Assembly (NCBI GenBank): GCA_016840405.1
Contig: JAEOSK010000016.1
Span: forward strand, 1-60,601
Direction of reading: 5' to 3'
From: Candidatus Hermodarchaeum yapensis
Lineage (GTDB): Archaea; Asgardarchaeota; Hermodarchaeia; Hermodarchaeales; Hermodarchaeaceae
DNA length: 60,601 bases
The position numbers were made by a program, and so were the translations under genes. Below the pieces are notes generated by a model. That model saw only the letters and a program-made list of their open reading frames with translations, made no database searches and was not told the origin of the DNA. Shown here one piece after another: positions 493 through 39,082 of the stretch (positions within the stretch are counted from its first letter, which is position 1; each line of letters starts with the position of its first letter).

Positions 493-1314
493 ATGATGAC
501 TGAATCGAAGGCAAATTCAACTGTATCAGAGAAAGTTGAATCACGTGGTAAATCAATGGCAACGAATCAGTTGGTCGAATTGATTCGAATGCGCCGAAGC
601 ATTCGCCGAATGACCGGTGAACGACTGCCAGATGAGGATTTAGAATTGATACTGGATGCAGCTCGATATGCTCCATCACCTGAAAATATGCAGATGTGGC
701 GGTATGTGGTCATTCGAGATGATCAGGAGATGAAACGGATTATCGCAGACATCAGTCAGGAAGCAGCCCGGTATGTCTTTGGGAATTTTCCGTACGAGGC
801 GACTCAAGGACGTTTATGGTACTTACCAGACGCAAGTCGCCCATCAATATATGAAGATATACGAGACGGGTCCCTGTTCCGCTATCCTGAGAAAGCGGAT
901 GCAGTCATAGTTTGTTGCGCCTCGGAAACTTGGCACGACAGCACAGCGATGTATCCCAATGAATTGTGCGGTAGCGTCGTCGTAGCGATGGGGGTCCTGA
1001 ATATGTGGTTGGTCGCACACTCAATGGGTTATGCGTGTGCTTACCAAGTAGTGCCTTTTGTAGATAAACGCCACGTAGAGTTCATCTGTGATAAGATAGG
1101 GATTCCTCGCACCTGGACTCCAATCGCCGCCTTTTGTATTGGTATTCCTGAAAAACCACGGATGCTCGGACCATCCCGGTGGCCGCTTGAAGGTAGTTTC
1201 TATGCAGAACGATGGGGTATTCCGTATCAACGGCTTGCATTTCGAAATCAAAAAGCCAAGAAATCTAAACAAAAACCGAAGACAAAACGAAAAAAGAGGA
1301 AGGTTCAGAGGTGA
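493..1314 (+). CDS. nitroreductase family protein
   Basis: RRSIRR, ILDAARYAPSPENMQMWRYVVI, NMWLVAHSMGY motifs; Lys/Arg-rich C-terminal tail. Confidence 0.9.
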   Translation: MMTESKANSTVSEKVESRGKSMATNQLVELIRMRRSIRRMTGERLPDEDLELILDAARYAPSPENMQMWRYVVIRDDQEMKRIIADISQEAARYVFGNFPYEATQGRLWYLPDASRPSIYEDIRDGSLFRYPEKADAVIVCCASETWHDSTAMYPNELCGSVVVAMGVLNMWLVAHSMGYACAYQVVPFVDKRHVEFICDKIGIPRTWTPIAAFCIGIPEKPRMLGPSRWPLEGSFYAERWGIPYQRLAFRNQKAKKSKQKPKTKRKKRKVQR

Positions 1315-1598
1315 AAAGCGCTATGAAACTGGAATTACCAGAAGATGTTCGCAAGGGATTGGTACAGAAAGCCAAAGACGCAAATATCAGCGTTGAAGCT
1401 GCAGCACGCCTCATATTGGGAGAGTTCGTTCGGGTTTACGGTAGTTGCATCTATGCAGGTACTTGGCGGCGTGGAGACAAAGCAGGGAATAAAGGTATGC
1501 GGTATGTCGTGGATTGGCCATTTCAACCGGGTTTTGCTAAAATTCCAGGAGATCAATCCATCGACTTAGGAAAGGACAAAACTCCTCAAGGAGGATAG
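1311..1598 (+). CDS. small protein with N-terminal ribbon-helix-helix-like segment
   Basis: MKLELPEDVRKGLVQKAKDANISVEAAARLIL pattern; overlaps upstream stop; ATG at 1323 after GAGGTGA is the likelier start. Confidence 0.6.
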   Translation: MKSAMKLELPEDVRKGLVQKAKDANISVEAAARLILGEFVRVYGSCIYAGTWRRGDKAGNKGMRYVVDWPFQPGFAKIPGDQSIDLGKDKTPQGG

Positions 1599-1601
1599 GT
1601 T

Positions 1602-1874
1602 ATGCCACGATACAAAAAAGCTTCAGATGGTGAATGGCCAGGGTATCCACACTTACGGATTAACGATATTGAAACTCTAACGATTCATCAGAACAAGTAC
1701 GTTGCCAAAGCCATGGTGAACAACCGGAAGGGTCGTGTTGTTCTATTAATGGACGAGGAACTCTACAACGAATTTCTGACCAAGGTTCAGGAACGAAAAG
1801 GTGACAAAAGTGCACGCCATGTCAATGCCGCAGTGCTTGATGCCGTACAAGATTGGATGAAACAGAAGAAATGA
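1602..1874 (+). CDS. small protein with C-terminal ribbon-helix-helix-like segment
   Basis: VLLMDEELYNEFLTKV...HVNAAVLDAVQDWM; GGAGG SD upstream. Confidence 0.6.
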   Translation: MPRYKKASDGEWPGYPHLRINDIETLTIHQNKYVAKAMVNNRKGRVVLLMDEELYNEFLTKVQERKGDKSARHVNAAVLDAVQDWMKQKK

Positions 1875-1882
1875 CCTAAAAG

Positions 1883-2254
1883 GTGACCATGTTGCCAAAT
1901 CAGATTGCTCAACTATTTGAGACAATGATTCAACAGGTGAATGATACACCTGAACACCGCGAGTTTGTCCGCAATTGGGTAGGACCCTATCAAGGGAAAG
2001 TACTTCAAGTAGAAACTGATGATGACACATTCCACATTTTATTGCACCGCAAGGGAACCATGGAGCTTCAAATTGGTTCCTACCCTTCTCCAGAAGTGAT
2101 TTACAAAGCCTCGACTGAGACCTTGATGAGTCTGTTTACTGGTCAAACCACGTTTCGTGATTTAATTAAACGATGGGAGCTCATAATCATCGGAGCAGGA
2201 CATGAATCCCTGCCCCTTGGTCAGCTCATGATGCGTGTCCTTCGAACTCGTTGA
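1883..2254 (+). CDS. SCP2 sterol-carrier-like domain protein
   Basis: PSPEVIYKASTETLMSLFTGQ...LIIIG pattern typical of SCP2; AGGTGA SD before ATG 1889. Confidence 0.65.
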   Translation: MTMLPNQIAQLFETMIQQVNDTPEHREFVRNWVGPYQGKVLQVETDDDTFHILLHRKGTMELQIGSYPSPEVIYKASTETLMSLFTGQTTFRDLIKRWELIIIGAGHESLPLGQLMMRVLRTR

Positions 2255-2314
2255 GGATTTGAAGACTCAAAGGCGAGAGGTCTAAAGCTAAAAGGATGCG
2301 ATTACGAGCTATGG

Positions 2315-3328
2315 ATGGTTATGGTTTTGTCTGAGCGAAAACGACCGCCTGCGAATCTGACGGCTGAAGACTGGTTTAATTTGGGTATTGCATTGGGTGA
2401 GCAGGGAAAATTAGAGGAAGCCTTAGAAGCGTTTTCGGTCACCACGGAACTCCGACCACGCGACGCAGCAGTGTGGTTTAATAGGGGACTAGTTCTCGAC
2501 CAGCTTGGTCGGATTAATGAGGCACTCGAATGCTACCAGAAGGCCACAGAGTTGGATCCGAGTTATATTGAAGCGTGGAATAACCTTGGAGCAGCTTACA
2601 AAGAACTGAATCGCTTTGAGGATGCCCTTCACAGTTTCACTCAAGCCACGCGAGTCTTCACTGCCAACCCGCAGGATTATGCTGATGCCTGGTATAACCG
2701 TGGATTAGTGTTACATGAACTTGGCCTCCACCAAGAAGCTCTTGAATGTCTTATTGAAACAGTCACCGTCAATCCCCGAGATGCAAAAGGATGGTACTAC
2801 CGAGGCAGTCTACACGAACAACTTGCCCAATGGGATGACGCAATCACTTGTTACAAGCGTGCAACTAAGCTTGCGCCCACCTATCTTGACGCTTGGATTG
2901 ATATGGGTGAATTGTTGGGTAACATCAACCGAGTTGACGAGGCCATCAAAGCCTTTGATAAAGCTTTAAAATTAGATTCAAAGAATGCTCGGGTCTGGTA
3001 CGATAAAGGTGTAGCACTCGGATTAATCGGAAAACATGCTAGTGCTGTAAACGCGTACCGCAAGGCAACAGTATTGAACCCTAACGATGAAAGATCATTA
3101 TTTAACTTGGCGAACACTTTAGCTCGTGATTTGAAGGAATATGAGCCTGCCCTTGAAATCGTCAACACATTACTGCAAATCAATCCCGAACACACTAATG
3201 GATTATACCTTCGAGGTCGTATCCTTATCGAACTCAACCGAAATAAAGAAGCCAACGAGTGTTTTAAGAAAGTCCTAACACTTGACCCTGATTACCCATA
3301 CCTTAAAGAAGAGAAGAACTCCGAATAG
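2315..3328 (+). CDS. tetratricopeptide repeat protein
   Basis: About nine 34-aa repeats (AWNNLG...EAL...A..L.P). Confidence 0.95.
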   Translation: MVMVLSERKRPPANLTAEDWFNLGIALGEQGKLEEALEAFSVTTELRPRDAAVWFNRGLVLDQLGRINEALECYQKATELDPSYIEAWNNLGAAYKELNRFEDALHSFTQATRVFTANPQDYADAWYNRGLVLHELGLHQEALECLIETVTVNPRDAKGWYYRGSLHEQLAQWDDAITCYKRATKLAPTYLDAWIDMGELLGNINRVDEAIKAFDKALKLDSKNARVWYDKGVALGLIGKHASAVNAYRKATVLNPNDERSLFNLANTLARDLKEYEPALEIVNTLLQINPEHTNGLYLRGRILIELNRNKEANECFKKVLTLDPDYPYLKEEKNSE

Positions 3329-3355
3329 AAGAGTCAGACTAAAGGTGCACGGCCA

Positions 3356-4321
3356 ATGCAAAATCCTAGTTTGACCGACGTGTTAGTAGCCCAACAACGA
3401 ATCAAACCGTATCTGAAACCCACACCATTGCACAGTTACCCTGCCATCAATGATCTGATTGGAGCTCATGTATTCATCAAGCACGAAAATGTCCAACCAG
3501 TGGGAGCCTTCAAAGTCAGAGGAGGCATCAACCTCATATCTCAACTATCGGAGGACGAAAAACGACGAGGGGTGATTACCGCTTCAACTGGGAACCATGG
3601 ACAGTCTGTGGCTTACGCCTCACGCATCTTTGGAGTAGAAGCCAGGGTTGTGGTGCCTGAAGGGGCAAATCCAGGAAAAGTAGCCGCGATGAAGGCGATG
3701 GGCGCAGAAATCATCGTTCACGGTAAGAATTTCGATGAATCACGCGTCCATTGTGAACAATTGGCAGAGAAACACAACTATCGGTATATCCACTCAGGGA
3801 ATGAACCCCACCTAATTGCAGGCGTGGGTACGATAACATTAGAAATATTGCAGGAACAACCTGAAATCCAGACAATAATCGTCCCCCTTGGGGGCGGGAG
3901 TGGAGCATCAGGAGCTAGCATTGTAGCAAAGGCTTTGTCTCCACCCACTCAGGTCCTAGCCGTTCAATCTAGTGCGTCCCAAGCAGCTTACCAATCCTGG
4001 AAACAAAAGAAACTTGTTGAATCTCCTAATCAAACATTTGCTGAAGGGTTAGCCACCGGAACCGCGTTTAAACTTCCGCAATCAATTTTAGGGAAGCTGT
4101 TAGATGATTTTATTCTCGTGAGTGATGACGAAATTTTACAGGCGATGGTGTGGATGCTTGAGAAGGCTCATACGCTAGTAGAAGGAGCCGGAGCTGCCCC
4201 ATTGGCTGCAGCATACAAACTTCGACGAAAACTCCAAAACCAGAGAGTGGCCTTGATTTGTTCTGGTGGAAACGCCTCCCTCAAAAATCTAAAAATGGCC
4301 CTTAATTCGATCAAAGATTGA
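3356..4321 (+). CDS. PLP-dependent threonine/serine dehydratase family
   Basis: KHENVQPVGAFKVRG, ASTGNHG, PLGGGSG, EGAGAA, CSGGN. Confidence 0.93.
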   Translation: MQNPSLTDVLVAQQRIKPYLKPTPLHSYPAINDLIGAHVFIKHENVQPVGAFKVRGGINLISQLSEDEKRRGVITASTGNHGQSVAYASRIFGVEARVVVPEGANPGKVAAMKAMGAEIIVHGKNFDESRVHCEQLAEKHNYRYIHSGNEPHLIAGVGTITLEILQEQPEIQTIIVPLGGGSGASGASIVAKALSPPTQVLAVQSSASQAAYQSWKQKKLVESPNQTFAEGLATGTAFKLPQSILGKLLDDFILVSDDEILQAMVWMLEKAHTLVEGAGAAPLAAAYKLRRKLQNQRVALICSGGNASLKNLKMALNSIKD

Positions 4322-28686: not shown

Positions 28687-29895
28687 TTAGTACGTATAGG
28701 GACTATAGAGGGGGAGCTGTGGGAACCAGTTTTGTAGGAGTTCACGGGTTTGCTTATCAGCGCCCTTGAGCCACTGTGCATATTCGATTTCTTCTAGAGA
28801 ATGAGTTCCATAGACAAGGGCACTTAGACCATGAATGGTTAGTGCAGTTTTCGTTGCCTGTGTTGTAGGCTGAATTTGCAGTTGTTTTCCATTGGATTTG
28901 AGAAGATAGGTGCCAGTATTCCATTCACATTGGGAATCACTTAGTGTAAATACCAGTTCACCCTTTTCAGTGGCAGGAAGACCTGAGAGGGCTTCTTTGA
29001 CGTCAATAACACGGATCATCCAAGGATGCCAGACTTTGATTTGAATCCAGTCTCTCAAGTCCTCAAACCAGTGCTGAAAGTTGGTTCCGTAGGGAAGGAT
29101 CATTATGAGTTTTTGAAACTGGTCTCGGTGTTTGCTGAAGAAGTTGAAGAGGGCGGCTTGGGCTGGGAGATTACGCCAGTACATTTCCTCAATTTGAAGT
29201 TGCCCAGGTTCTTCGAAGTGCATGTAACCTTTAAACTTGAAGCGAGCAAGCGCTTCAATCTTCCCTCCTTTTTTCACCAACACATAATGCCGGTCTTTGT
29301 TACGACGTTTCCATTCTTCATCAGAAATGACCGGGTTGAAAGCATAACCGTGAAAGGCACTTGGAGCGAAATCTTGGATGAAAGCCATGTAAGCATCTTT
29401 TACTTCTTGTCCTGAAACGCGTTCAATCTCCAAGTCATCATTGATTTCATGATTTGCCTTTACGCGTAGCCCGTCAAGCGGAGCTTGTAGGCGATATTTT
29501 TCATATGCGGGGACATAGCCAAATTTGTCGTAGAAGGTTTCTCGGAAGGGTTCGAGCATGCTGACGGAAAATCCTTCATCTTTCATTTTTTGAAACGCCT
29601 TTTGCATTAACGAGCGAGTATAACCTTTCATCCGGGCTTCAGGGTAGGTACCGACCATTGATATTCCGCCCATCATTTTCAGGACGCCACGAATGGACTG
29701 TTTCGTTTTCATTATCGTTAGAACTGAGAGAAGGTCTTTTTTGTCAAACACGCCGATTGTGTTTTCAGGAATTATGAAGTCATGGTCTTCTTCGCGAACC
29801 TCTTGGTCGGACCAGAAGCCATAGGCATATTGGTGGAGCTTGAGGACTTTGGGCATTTCCTTTTTTGTGAGTTTTCGGATTTCCATCGTTGGCAT
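28687..29895 (-). CDS. Eis-like GNAT acetyltransferase with C-terminal SCP2-like domain
   Basis: VGTYPEARMKGY, FYDKFGY, D..C.WNTG, LSALVYG. Confidence 0.88.
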   Translation of the reverse strand: MPTMEIRKLTKKEMPKVLKLHQYAYGFWSDQEVREEDHDFIIPENTIGVFDKKDLLSVLTIMKTKQSIRGVLKMMGGISMVGTYPEARMKGYTRSLMQKAFQKMKDEGFSVSMLEPFRETFYDKFGYVPAYEKYRLQAPLDGLRVKANHEINDDLEIERVSGQEVKDAYMAFIQDFAPSAFHGYAFNPVISDEEWKRRNKDRHYVLVKKGGKIEALARFKFKGYMHFEEPGQLQIEEMYWRNLPAQAALFNFFSKHRDQFQKLIMILPYGTNFQHWFEDLRDWIQIKVWHPWMIRVIDVKEALSGLPATEKGELVFTLSDSQCEWNTGTYLLKSNGKQLQIQPTTQATKTALTIHGLSALVYGTHSLEEIEYAQWLKGADKQTRELLQNWFPQLPLYSPYTY

Positions 29896-30790: not shown

Positions 30791-32710
30791 TTAGTTTGTA
30801 CTGAAATATTGTTTGTAGAAGGCTTTAATTTCCTTCGCTGAGGGTAGGGTGATTTGTTCCCATACCTGAATTATGTCTTTTAGTTGGTTTTCTCCTTTTT
30901 GTCCAGCAAATAGGTCTTGTAGATAGGTAGTTCGTTCTGTTATGTCACGTTGGCAAAATTGTAGGAATTCTTCGGGTGTATAGAATCGGAGGGGATTGAA
31001 TCGTTCGCGGTATTTGGGTAATCCATGGACTTCTTCGAGTTCGGTTGGATTTGGAATGAGGAAGGATTGTCCGAAAACAGGATGAGGTATCCATTGCTGG
31101 ATTTTTCGGTTTTCGATAAGATCGACGAGGAGTTTGGTATCCTGCACCTTGATTTTCTCACCTAGTCCAAGATATACGGGTTTTCCTTGTCCGTTGAGGT
31201 AGGGTTTCCCAGTGGCTTGATCGATTTTCGGAACAGGTTGACCTTTTTCGTCTAGCAATGGTCGTTGTTTCCCGTCGAGATTGTATTCACCGACAAAACC
31301 AGAATTTACAATAGCGAAGACCAGTTTGTTTTGAGGTCCAATTCCCATGTCCTTATACATTTGGAGTTTCATGATTGCCTGTTGAGCTTGTTCTCGAGCC
31401 ATGAAATCTGTAGCGGCGTAGGAGCGGACCCGTGTACCAGGTATTTTACCGCCTATAGCTGAAGTGATGACGGATTCACAGGCTGAATCAAGAGCGACTG
31501 CCATCACAGGATCTGTAATGCAGGCGACTACTGGGAAGATGTCAAAGCGTCGAAAAGAGAGCATCACGGTTTGAAGGATTTTCTCAGAACCAGATTTCCA
31601 GTTAGGGTTAAGGTCATAAAAGCGGAACACAAAGCGTCCATTGGTGGTTCCGGATTGCTCATATCGTGTGGGTTGGAGGTGTCCTGCCTGTTTTCCTGGA
31701 AGGGGTTGGGGGACTTTTACTGTATGTCCTGCAATTGTTTCTATTCGATATTCGATGTTCTCACAATCGATGTTCTGAGCTAACACGATAGGGCGTGTAC
31801 CATCAGCTTGGACTTCTTGTGATTTCATGAGACCTGCCCATTCCGGGCTCGTGTCGGTTAGACCCTCGCTTTTTGCATAGGAGGCAGCTTCCAATCCAAT
31901 AAGCCGTATTTGGTGAATATGTCGATTCGATTCTGAATATTCGAGTAAACCGAGTATGGCGTCATCCTGTTCCAGTTGAGGACCAACGGTGAGTGTGGTT
32001 TTTCCAGTTCCAGAGAGTCCCTTGAGAACACGATTTTTAGTGCAACCTGCATGATAGGAGATTAGCCCTTTAGCTTCACCGCGATTCCAGACCATCGTCA
32101 GATTGGGTTTCTTGAATGCACCACCAAAATAGTCGACACGAAGACTCATGACACGGCGGTGGTCCTCATCCATCCGGGTAAGATCATAAAGTGTCAGGGG
32201 CTCATCAGGATCAAACTCGGGCCAAAAGGACTGGATTTCTTTAATAACATCATCGGGAAGCCGTTCTTGAACAATATAGTTCCAACAATTGATGTCCATA
32301 CCTTCTTCAGGTGGGTAGACCATCAGACGTCCAAACCAGGTGATATAAGCAGTATGTGGGTTCTCAACGCTAAGGACGATACGTAGCCCAGTCTTAAAAT
32401 CAGCTTCACCTTGAATGCCATCCTGAACAATCACTTTAGCAGTTTTAAGATATCTGAGAACGACATCAAAGAGTTGCAATCCGATTTCACGATCAAAACT
32501 GGGTTGGCCCTTCCCTAGTCTATAACCATCAGGGATAAGGTAAAAAGCTCGATCAGGACGGCGTCCGGCTTGTGTATTGCCAAACAGGTATTGTCCATCG
32601 ATGGTGTGGAGATAGTAGGGTTTGAGGTATTCAATAAACCAAGAATCATCGGGATTTCTTGTAACATTTTCATCTTTGAAAAAGAGATCATCTTCGATGT
32701 TAACAGGCAC
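30791..32710 (-). CDS. pckA: divergent ATP-dependent phosphoenolpyruvate carboxykinase-like protein
   Basis: YFGGAFKK, YHAG, GLSGTGKTTL, QDD, EAASYAK, NGR match ATP-PEPCK motifs in order. Confidence 0.75.
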   Translation of the reverse strand: MPVNIEDDLFFKDENVTRNPDDSWFIEYLKPYYLHTIDGQYLFGNTQAGRRPDRAFYLIPDGYRLGKGQPSFDREIGLQLFDVVLRYLKTAKVIVQDGIQGEADFKTGLRIVLSVENPHTAYITWFGRLMVYPPEEGMDINCWNYIVQERLPDDVIKEIQSFWPEFDPDEPLTLYDLTRMDEDHRRVMSLRVDYFGGAFKKPNLTMVWNRGEAKGLISYHAGCTKNRVLKGLSGTGKTTLTVGPQLEQDDAILGLLEYSESNRHIHQIRLIGLEAASYAKSEGLTDTSPEWAGLMKSQEVQADGTRPIVLAQNIDCENIEYRIETIAGHTVKVPQPLPGKQAGHLQPTRYEQSGTTNGRFVFRFYDLNPNWKSGSEKILQTVMLSFRRFDIFPVVACITDPVMAVALDSACESVITSAIGGKIPGTRVRSYAATDFMAREQAQQAIMKLQMYKDMGIGPQNKLVFAIVNSGFVGEYNLDGKQRPLLDEKGQPVPKIDQATGKPYLNGQGKPVYLGLGEKIKVQDTKLLVDLIENRKIQQWIPHPVFGQSFLIPNPTELEEVHGLPKYRERFNPLRFYTPEEFLQFCQRDITERTTYLQDLFAGQKGENQLKDIIQVWEQITLPSAKEIKAFYKQYFSTN

Positions 32711-32877
32711 TGGATATCCATCCTTTGCTATCGTTTGACTCCTCAGCTTGTTCCCTTTTATATCTAGATGCTCGTTTGGAGTTTCAGATTGTGGGATTCG
32801 AAGGACATGCTCTTCCCTTTTTTAGCCTGTTGGTTGCTCTGCAAAGCAGTTATAAGGAGAGGAAGCTTGGCGATGTC

Positions 32878-32938
32878 TGAGCGGGTGGGATACTCGCACC
32901 GTGCTCCGCTCATTCAAATAAATCCCGGGCTGCGAGGT
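32878..32938 (+). promoter_or_regulatory. candidate riboswitch-like pseudoknotted leader of queT
   Basis: TTATAA at 32850-32855; P1 32878-84/32906-12; gggat 32887-91/atccc 32922-26; ctcgca 32893-98/tgcgag 32931-36 overlapping SD GAGGT. Confidence 0.5.
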
Positions 32939-32946
32939 TGCATGTT

Positions 32947-33453
32947 ATGTTATATCAAGCCAGATTAAATCGCACACAAAGTATCGCCGTGATGGCAATC
33001 ATGTCGGCGGTGTATGCTGCAGTAACTATTGTGTTACAACCCATCAGCTATTATGGATTACAGTTCCGAGTAGCTGATATTCTATTACCATCGCCCTTTA
33101 TCCTAGGCTGGCCCATGGTCGTTGCACTATTCATTGGTGGATTTGTAGCCAACATTTTCGGTGGACTAGGAGTCATTGACATCGTTCTTGGTAGCCTCCT
33201 TAACCTCTTAGCAGGAATTCTGGTAATGAACCGGAAAACTTGTCCCCACTGGCTCCTTGCCTGGTTGTATCCAACATTAATCATCGGATTGGGCGTTCCA
33301 GCCTATCTTCAGTTCCTATTCTTTACACCCTATATTCTCCTGATGCCTGAAATCTTGGCGAGCACAGCCATCCTGTGTGCCATTGGTGTCGTAGTGATGT
33401 TTGGTGTTGAAAGGGCCCTTCCCCAAGTCTTTGTTAAATCAAAGGAATCCTGA
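32947..33453 (+). CDS. queT: QueT-family transporter (queuosine/archaeosine precursor ECF S-component-like)
   Basis: AVYAAVT...PISYYGLQFRVAD, GGFVANIFGGLGVIDIVLGS. Confidence 0.85.
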   Translation: MLYQARLNRTQSIAVMAIMSAVYAAVTIVLQPISYYGLQFRVADILLPSPFILGWPMVVALFIGGFVANIFGGLGVIDIVLGSLLNLLAGILVMNRKTCPHWLLAWLYPTLIIGLGVPAYLQFLFFTPYILLMPEILASTAILCAIGVVVMFGVERALPQVFVKSKES

Positions 33454-37879: not shown

Positions 37880-39082
37880 CTAAAAGTACACAACGTTGTA
37901 GAGGGGAAGGAGTGGGAACCAGCGTTGAAGCGTATGTCGAGCCCAATCTTCAGTGATGGTAATTTCCCCTTGAAACTCTAATTCCTCAACAGAAAGAGTA
38001 CCGAAGACCAGGGAAGAAAGCGCCTTGATAGAAAGCTTCACAACTGGTTTGCCGGAACTCTTGTTCATGTGAAGACAGTTTTTCTCTGATTGAATTGTGA
38101 ATATACCATTGTTCCAAGCACAATCGGGATCAGAAATTTCTAGTGTCACCATATCCTCGCCTGAGGCTGGAATGTTTTCAACGGCTTTTTGAGCATCGAT
38201 AACTCGAACCATCCATGGAGCCTTTCGCTCGATACTCAACCTAGCATCTTCAAACCAATGTTCTACTCTCGTTTCAAACGGAGCATGGATGATGATATCA
38301 TCGATTTGATCTTGATGAGTGGCAAAGAAGTCAAAAAGCTTCATTCTTGCTTCCCGGGTTCGCCATAAGATGTCTATGACCGTTAGTTCTGATACCCAAC
38401 GACCTTCTCTTCGTTCGCCTTTGATTCGATAGCGGCTTGCGGCTTGAATCACTCCTTTGTTTTTCACAAAGACAACAATACTGTCTTTGGTCCTGCGTTT
38501 CCACATTCCGTCGGGGATTGATTTGAAAATAATGAATCCATGATACTGGGCTGGTCCAATTTCTCGGATAAATTCCAAGAGAGTATCTTTAGCGTCAACC
38601 GCACGTAACCTTTCATAGCTCCATTCCGAATTCGCATCTTCTCTCCCAGTGTGCTTGAGATGTTTTATGGGAGCTTTGACGAGATATGGAGCGTTGGCGG
38701 TTGCATACCCAAATTTTGCGTAAAAACTTGGTTTAAAGGGGTCCAGCATACTCACGGATTGGTCTTGCTTATACATTTCTTTAAATCCAGCGAGCATGAG
38801 TTGTCGTACATAGCCTTTATGGCGTACTTCAGGGTAACTGGCTACACCTGCGATGCCACCACAATCTTTGAGAACCCCTCGCACTGATTGTTGAAATTCA
38901 TGGAGTCTCGTGGATGAGACAAGCTGCCCATTTTCAAATAAGCCAAGGGTTTCATGAGTGAGGATTTCTTCAAGCTCTTCATCCTTGATTTCTTGATCTG
39001 ACCATTCGGTGTAGGCGTATCGGTATAGGTCCATCAAGGCTTTGCGATCCTTGGCAGTGATTTTTCGGATTTCCATAGTCAT
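37880..39082 (-). CDS. Eis-like GNAT acetyltransferase (paralog of 28687..29895)
   Basis: VASYPEVRHKGY, FYAKFGY, DPDCAWNNG; collinear similarity to the other copy. Confidence 0.88.
   Translation of the reverse strand: MTMEIRKITAKDRKALMDLYRYAYTEWSDQEIKDEELEEILTHETLGLFENGQLVSSTRLHEFQQSVRGVLKDCGGIAGVASYPEVRHKGYVRQLMLAGFKEMYKQDQSVSMLDPFKPSFYAKFGYATANAPYLVKAPIKHLKHTGREDANSEWSYERLRAVDAKDTLLEFIREIGPAQYHGFIIFKSIPDGMWKRRTKDSIVVFVKNKGVIQAASRYRIKGERREGRWVSELTVIDILWRTREARMKLFDFFATHQDQIDDIIIHAPFETRVEHWFEDARLSIERKAPWMVRVIDAQKAVENIPASGEDMVTLEISDPDCAWNNGIFTIQSEKNCLHMNKSSGKPVVKLSIKALSSLVFGTLSVEELEFQGEITITEDWARHTLQRWFPLLPLYNVVYF

Follow-up and report, generated by a model that had tools for sequence, protein, structure and literature searches.

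The 5′ leader of queT in the window, a 60,601-nucleotide stretch of Candidatus Hermodarchaeum yapensis DNA (contig JAEOSK010000016.1, forward strand), contains an element that, on comparative sequence evidence, is a real and conserved archaeal RNA. No earlier description of it was found in the searched literature, including a 2026 preprint on intergenic clusters, a search that left subscription papers mostly outside its scope. The element is probably a riboswitch that turns translation off in response to a 7-deazaguanine, with preQ0 the likeliest candidate, and it would represent a class not described before. The first-pass annotation of this locus had proposed a new 7-deazaguanine-sensing switch acting over the queT Shine-Dalgarno (SD) sequence; this proposal is supported by conservation of the motif in two phyla, covariation in two of its helices (P1 and P3), the position of the putative transcript start and a genomic setting confined to the uptake and synthesis of preQ0.

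The gene behind the leader (32947..33453, + strand) encodes a 168-aa transporter assigned to the QueT family by a match to PF06177 (E 8e-25) and by the names of the members of its protein cluster, which are called QueT and come from Ca. Hermodarchaeia/Hermodarchaeota of the Asgard group. Translation starts at ATG 32947, and the resulting 168-aa product is present as a called protein. The SD sequence GAGGT (32934-38) begins 13 nt 5′ of this ATG, which is the peak SD position in the host genome; SD use in that genome is evident from 67 cases in the SD window versus 7–9 in control windows, and the 3′-end of the host 16S rRNA carries the anti-SD. Two other start codons were rejected, TTG 32938 because it overlaps the SD and ATG 32942 because it is out of frame and too close. 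Upstream lies a divergent gene (30791-32710, − strand) for a 639-aa PEPCK-like protein with a GTG start, the P-loop GLSGTGKTTL and a weak match to PF01293 (E 1.8e-10); a link between it and the leader was rejected, since the flanking genes vary in other lineages while queT stays. Two genes for Eis-like GNAT acetyltransferases of about 400 aa (28687-29895 and 37880-39082, both − strand) are also found near the locus.

The alignment of related queT leaders that the first-pass annotation had suggested was carried out, and it revealed a conserved leader in which P1 and the anti-SD/SD helix covary. The motif was identified 5′ of queT at 17/17 loci of the host's own family and at 7 that belong to other Asgard families, and a pattern scan of GTDB yielded at least 120 further loci, mostly from Bathyarchaeia, together with Nitrososphaerota-labelled, Methanomethylicota and Asgard records. 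A covariance model search detected the motif in 27 of 151 Asgard genomes (four families) and, after one weak false match had been dropped, in 28 of 151 Thermoproteota genomes, with one copy in each; a single copy per genome was the rule wherever whole genomes were searched. A total of 168 distinct copies was thus collected from Asgard archaea and Thermoproteota (mostly Bathyarchaeia), of which relatives are not independent and most were found by a pattern that forces the core, exceptions to the core being visible in the model-found set. The motif was absent from the fetched DNA of more distant Asgard QueT homologues (L024–L027 and L029). Three candidate copies were rejected: L190, which lies inside a coding region and has no model score; L219, which scores 22 bits and has no queT; and L226, a single viral match with no SD context. 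Among the matches listed, the motif is exclusively archaeal except for one bacterial-labelled contig with an archaeal-type queT; this contig (L109), labelled as an Acidiferrales bacterium, carries the motif together with a Bathyarchaeia-like queT and is probably mis-binned.

The core of the motif consists, in order, of GCGG-GU, a variable segment, an anti-SD, CCG, a loop of 2 or 4 nt ending in U, CCGC, an A-rich linker ending in A-N-AAA-Y-CC, CGG and the SD, and the whole spans 55–70 nt including the SD. The queT leader at 32879-32938 is the 4-nt-loop variant, which accounts for 23 of the 168 copies, the 2-nt form being found in 145. All of the short strings on which the first-pass annotation was built are in place, namely TTATAA (32850-55), TGAGCGG (32878-84) and CCGCTCA (32906-12), GGGAT (32887-91) and ATCCC (32922-26), CTCGCA (32893-98) and TGCGAG (32931-36), and GAGGT (32934-38). 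On the + strand, stem P1 is formed by GAGCGG (32879..32884) and CCGCTC (32906..32911). Its 5′ strand is followed by L1 (32885..32892), comprising the conserved G32885-U32886, a dinucleotide present in all 78 true model-aligned copies, and a variable G-rich segment; the distance from GCGG to CCG ranges from 9 to 22 nt across copies. The anti-SD CTCGCA (32893..32898), which is the 5′ strand of P3, and the conserved CCG (32899..32901), the 5′ strand of P2, precede L2 (32902..32905), which reads TGCT here and UU in most other copies; TT, TGCT, AGTT, AGCT and AT are the L2 sequences found in the 168 copies. The linker L3 (32912..32925) varies from 10 to 19 nt in length, is A-rich and contains no hairpin; it has A at −8 in 163/168 and at −5 in 167/168 copies, and CC in all aligned copies. 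It is followed by CGG (32926..32928), the 3′ strand of P2, and by the 3′ strand of P3, TGCGAG, which overlaps the SD (32931..32938).

Covariation across copies bears out P1, a stem that the first-pass annotation had proposed. Of the cells aligned in this stem, 94.9% are paired, and its covariation reaches 0.314, versus 0.094 in shuffled and at most 0.107 in slid alignments. The signal comes from the two pairs outside GCGG: the outer pair is Watson-Crick in 122/140 copies versus 67 after shuffling and occurs as all four pair types, the second shows weaker covariation than the outer one, and none was detected further out. The helix between CTCGCA and TGCGAG over the queT SD, also proposed earlier, covaries as well. 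P3 comprises at least 5 bp in 162/168 copies; CTCC in the loop and GGAG downstream occur together in 130 copies and are both lacking in 31, with only 7 discordant; and compensated versions, at least four of them unrelated, include CTCGCA/TGCGAG (as here), CCTCTC/GAGAGG, TTCCGAC/GTCGGAA, ACATCTC/GAGATGT and GTCTC/GAGAC. The complementarity is copy-specific, the mean energy of a copy's own duplex being −14.9 kcal/mol versus −13.1 ± 0.15 kcal/mol for cross-paired strands. The kinship of the copies means that these figures for P1 and P3 are not to be read as p-values.

The position of the promoter is consistent with a transcript that starts at this element. An archaeal promoter, consisting of a purine-rich BRE-like stretch and the TATA box TTATAA (32850-55), was identified at 32842..32855 (+). 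TATA-like hexamers are concentrated 31–36 nt 5′ of the core GCGG, behind an A-rich stretch (159 copies), and the corresponding distance at the 32850 locus is 31 nt. Archaeal promoter spacing puts the transcript start within a few bases of the P1 foot. From this spacing we infer a start near G32879 (±3), in agreement with the point at which P1 pairing ends. The same placement, directly behind a TATA box, might suggest that the GCGG...CCGC inverted repeat is a DNA operator for a repressor acting at the transcription start, or that the region encodes a leader peptide, given that ATG 32873 opens a frame of 31 codons. Either is extremely improbable: the two arms lie anywhere from 14 to 27 nt apart, and G-U pairs and anti-SD/SD covariation are features of RNA; ATG 32873 is not conserved, for which reason the leader peptide was rejected, and the leader carries indels of 1, 2 and 3 nt within the family.

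The third pairing, between CCG (32899-901) and CGG (32926-28), continues the SD helix and was absent from the first-pass annotation. It is found in 165/168 copies, and it appears from the sequences to extend P3 towards P1. No compensatory change was found in P2 or in the inner four pairs of P1, the core being so invariant, and this counts against the riboswitch reading. P2 is partly broken in three copies (L007, L217 and L218); in L217 (1501-1561, +) and L218 (1501-1563, −), CGG is replaced by CAA and the anti-SD/SD helix has 7 bp, so that these two variants are natural probes of the role of P2. Since P1 crosses P2 and P3, the resulting architecture is an H-type pseudoknot, and the covariation of P1, together with a loop anti-SD that changes with the SD region, supports a pseudoknot that buries the SD.

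A different pseudoknot had been proposed earlier, in which GGGAU in the loop of P1 pairs with AUCCC after the linker and the SD helix forms as a second step. This arrangement is very unlikely, even though in the 23 long-L2 copies its pairs 1–3 never deviate from G-C and 22 retain pair 5. It might act as a competing, clade-specific fold that releases the SD. Of these 23 copies, however, 12 have a broken pair 4 with no compensation, and in the other 145 copies the sequences are out of register, pairs 2, 4 and 5 being formed in only 34, 25 and 5, respectively. Its energy is only −4.4 kcal/mol versus −10.0 kcal/mol for P2 plus P3, it needs C32926, which is already used by P2, and it crosses P3, so that the two are unlikely to form together.

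Folding of the single leader was no better than that of shuffled sequences (z −0.3 to −1.1), and this weak fold, together with the lack of an Rfam match, means that the case rests on comparison. When pseudoknots are disallowed, the predicted fold of nearly every copy keeps the loop and the SD from pairing with each other and places the anti-SD within a hairpin, which is a plausible ON state. A candidate ON fold failed the cross-pairing test (−11.8 for own versus −12.4 for crossed strands) and showed no copy-specific complementarity, a result by which a specific covarying ON-state helix was rejected.

These observations suggest the following mechanism. The mRNA would begin at the foot of P1. 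In the ligand-free state, the loop is predicted to fold on itself or on the 5′ strand, leaving the SD open, and QueT would be made and would import a putative precursor for the archaeal tRNA-guanine transglycosylase (TGT). When the ligand is plentiful, it may bind at the junction of P1 and P2, framed by the GU of L1, the U of L2 and the AAAYCC of L3, a placement of the pocket made by analogy with preQ1-I. The bound ligand would lock the H-type pseudoknot, comprising CCG/CGG and anti-SD/SD, and initiation at ATG 32947 would thereby be blocked. The expression platform is P3, which covers an SD at the genome-typical position. An alternative is a static structure by which synthesis of a membrane protein is constitutively kept low or the 5′-end is shielded, or else a thermometer; strong GC pairing right at the 5′-end and the weak start codons of several copies would suit it. 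Such a role is quite unlikely: damping calls for pairing, not for a GU, a U and an AAAYCC that stay unpaired and unchanged in two phyla; a static structure would not be confined to preQ0 genes; and, as judged from record titles, copies originate from hot springs as well as from cool habitats.

The genes that follow the motif point to a 7-deazaguanine as the signal. In the 144 loci among the matches listed, the first gene is queT in 137, a queE-like gene in 5, queC in 1 and a gene for an unassigned membrane protein in 1; hence, 143/144 of these loci lead into queT, queE-like or queC genes. The five queE-like genes encode radical SAM proteins and are followed, where visible, by queC or GAT-queC. 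Among the 16 carriers that have QueC, 14 encode it at most about 1.5 kb 3′ of the motif, and one further Asgard carrier has QueC on another contig. Among 61 Asgard genomes, there are 14 with a full-length QueC and no motif and 25 carriers without QueC. TGT was found in 52/57 carriers, nearly always of archaeal length, and QueF in 0/57. The host genome (86% complete) encodes the archaeal G15 transglycosylase TgtA (524 bits) and a QueD/PTPS-family gene; QueC, QueE and QueF were not found in it, a Pfam QueC match having been rejected as LarE.

Several loci depart from the usual gene arrangement. In L063 (5727-6557, −), the motif is followed by an ORF of 277 aa whose C-terminal part is hydrophobic and which matches no NCBIfam family; it is a candidate for a new 7-deazaguanine transporter. 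The Bathyarchaeia-type queT genes behind the motif in L046, L062, L106, L108, L109, L122, L132 and L135 seem to begin with CTG, ACG or ATA, spaced as expected from a strong SD. In L028, L030, L126 and L128, the SD of the motif lies at a considerable distance 5′ of the QueT core and precedes an N-terminal extension or a short upstream ORF, an arrangement that counts against the riboswitch reading.

The near-invariance of the sequence even within helices, and the presence of TGT in 52/57 carriers, would also fit a leader bound by a macromolecule, such as TGT itself or an unmodified tRNA, which recognizes the core and shifts the SD helix. This is unlikely, as at none of the 144 listed loci does the motif lead into tgt or a regulator gene, TGT is found once per genome and away from the motif, and the motif is compact, shows no tRNA-like or T-box features and matches no Rfam family; small-molecule pockets, moreover, also yield invariant cores.

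If the riboswitch reading is adopted, preQ0 is the likeliest ligand, and a riboswitch for it is, taken overall, slightly more likely than not. Archaeal TGT uses preQ0 as its substrate and QueC produces it (PMC5485725), and it is the one compound common to the three gene contexts, queT alone, queT-queC and queE-queC. Carriers with archaeal TGT, without QueF and with QueC just downstream argue for preQ0 rather than preQ1; preQ1 is disfavored by the lack of QueF and by the host TGT being the archaeal G15 enzyme, and would have no known use in the carriers. Recognition of another ligand by the same riboswitch, namely 7-carboxy-7-deazaguanine (CDG), archaeosine base or nucleoside, or preQ1, is rather unlikely, although some observations fit it. 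No match over the cut-off to ArcS, RaSEA or a GTP-cyclohydrolase-I-fold (QueF-like) protein was found in five carriers that have archaeal TGT (G000, G007, G019, G029 and G151), three of which are single-contig genomes; in these, tRNA G15 modification either stops at preQ0 or involves an unrecognized archaeosine synthase. The host TGT reads GSPT where that of P. horikoshii has GGVV, and TGTs of organisms without ArcS have been proposed to have room for archaeosine base (PMC5485725). Archaeosine base is therefore conceivable as a ligand; it is, however, unstable and decays to preQ0. QueD gave no match in 12, and QueE in 13, of the 14 carriers whose queC follows the motif, which hints that QueT may import CDG for subsequent conversion by QueC, but QueE searches miss divergent QueEs. 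Motif-led queC loci in genomes without a QueD or QueE match were observed in G151, G152, G163, G171, G176, G187, G211, G219, G232, G259 and G303. Against all of these ligands, preQ0 alone is shared by the three contexts as the QueC product, and preQ1 in particular is at odds with the lack of QueF in 57 carriers.

The motif was compared with the preQ1 riboswitches as defined in PMC11625349 and PMC11602147. The first-pass annotation had noted a misfit to classes I, II and III, and this was confirmed, as the defining nucleotides are missing and no Rfam family matches. The Rfam search it had suggested gave only chance matches up to E 10, none of them at the motif here or in six loci, and a genome-wide search with the preQ1-I model gave matches elsewhere only, all below the cut-off. 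The nearest in logic is preQ1-I (RF00522, types I–III), specifically type III of E. coli; this class controls queT/yhhQ and queCDEF (PMC11625349). Both are small H-type pseudoknots with a G-C pair atop P1, an A-rich L3 and a loop anti-SD that pairs with the SD. However, preQ1-I has U or UU after the 5′ strand of P1 where the motif has GU in all true aligned copies, and UC or AC, including the specificity C, before the 3′ strand where the motif has CU or UU; UC arises there only if the top pair G32884-C32906 is assumed to be open. The lack of a cytosine at the class I specificity position counts against the riboswitch reading, as it bears on how a guanine-like face would be read. In addition, L3 of the motif ends in YCC, its loop and SD helix are longer, it receives no Rfam score, and its hosts are archaeal and lack QueF.

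Class preQ1-II (RF01054, the COG4708/queT motif) likewise lies upstream of queT, holds the whole SD in a pseudoknot helix and exerts translational control. It is an HL-out pseudoknot of four helices with U-A-U triples and is limited to Bacillota, whereas in the archaeal motif L3 forms no P4 hairpin and conserved U-rich strands are lacking, the core being G/C-rich. Class preQ1-III (RF02680) also regulates queT; it is larger, with five helices and about twice the size of the motif, and shares with class II a 10-nucleotide pocket in which a specificity C and U lie on U-A-U major-groove triples, whereas the motif measures 55–70 nt and lacks both the five-helix fold and the U-A-U pocket. By sequence and predicted structure, the motif is not a member of preQ1-I, -II or -III, although it may descend remotely from class I, in which case C32906 would flip out of P1 and recognize the ligand. 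The balance leans towards an archaea-specific class for preQ0 of the archaeosine pathway, with a pocket different from those of the three preQ1 classes and common to Asgard archaea and Thermoproteota. The few riboswitches known from archaea, TPP and fluoride and occasionally FMN, Mg2+-I and guanidine-II (PMC5473149), are, like the motif, cis-acting leaders of archaeal mRNAs; they belong to bacterial classes that are sparse in archaea (PMC5473149), whereas the motif is archaeal among the matches listed.

If this reading is correct, a class confined to archaea and widespread in Bathyarchaeia and several Asgard families would show that the lineage closest to eukaryotes has its own RNA-based control by metabolites, and would provide a fourth RNA solution for 7-deazaguanine binding, possibly a preQ0-selective one. 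The motif also points to the salvage of archaeosine precursors via QueT.

A further observation concerns the 16S rRNA gene of genome G000 (contig C71, ~630-4000, −), which is interrupted, with about 2.4 kb separating the 515 and 1492 landmarks. ORFs with LAGLIDADG-like motifs lie inside the interruption, and a hairpin insertion of about 33 nt is found near the 3′-end of the gene; the interruptions are probably rRNA introns with homing endonucleases.
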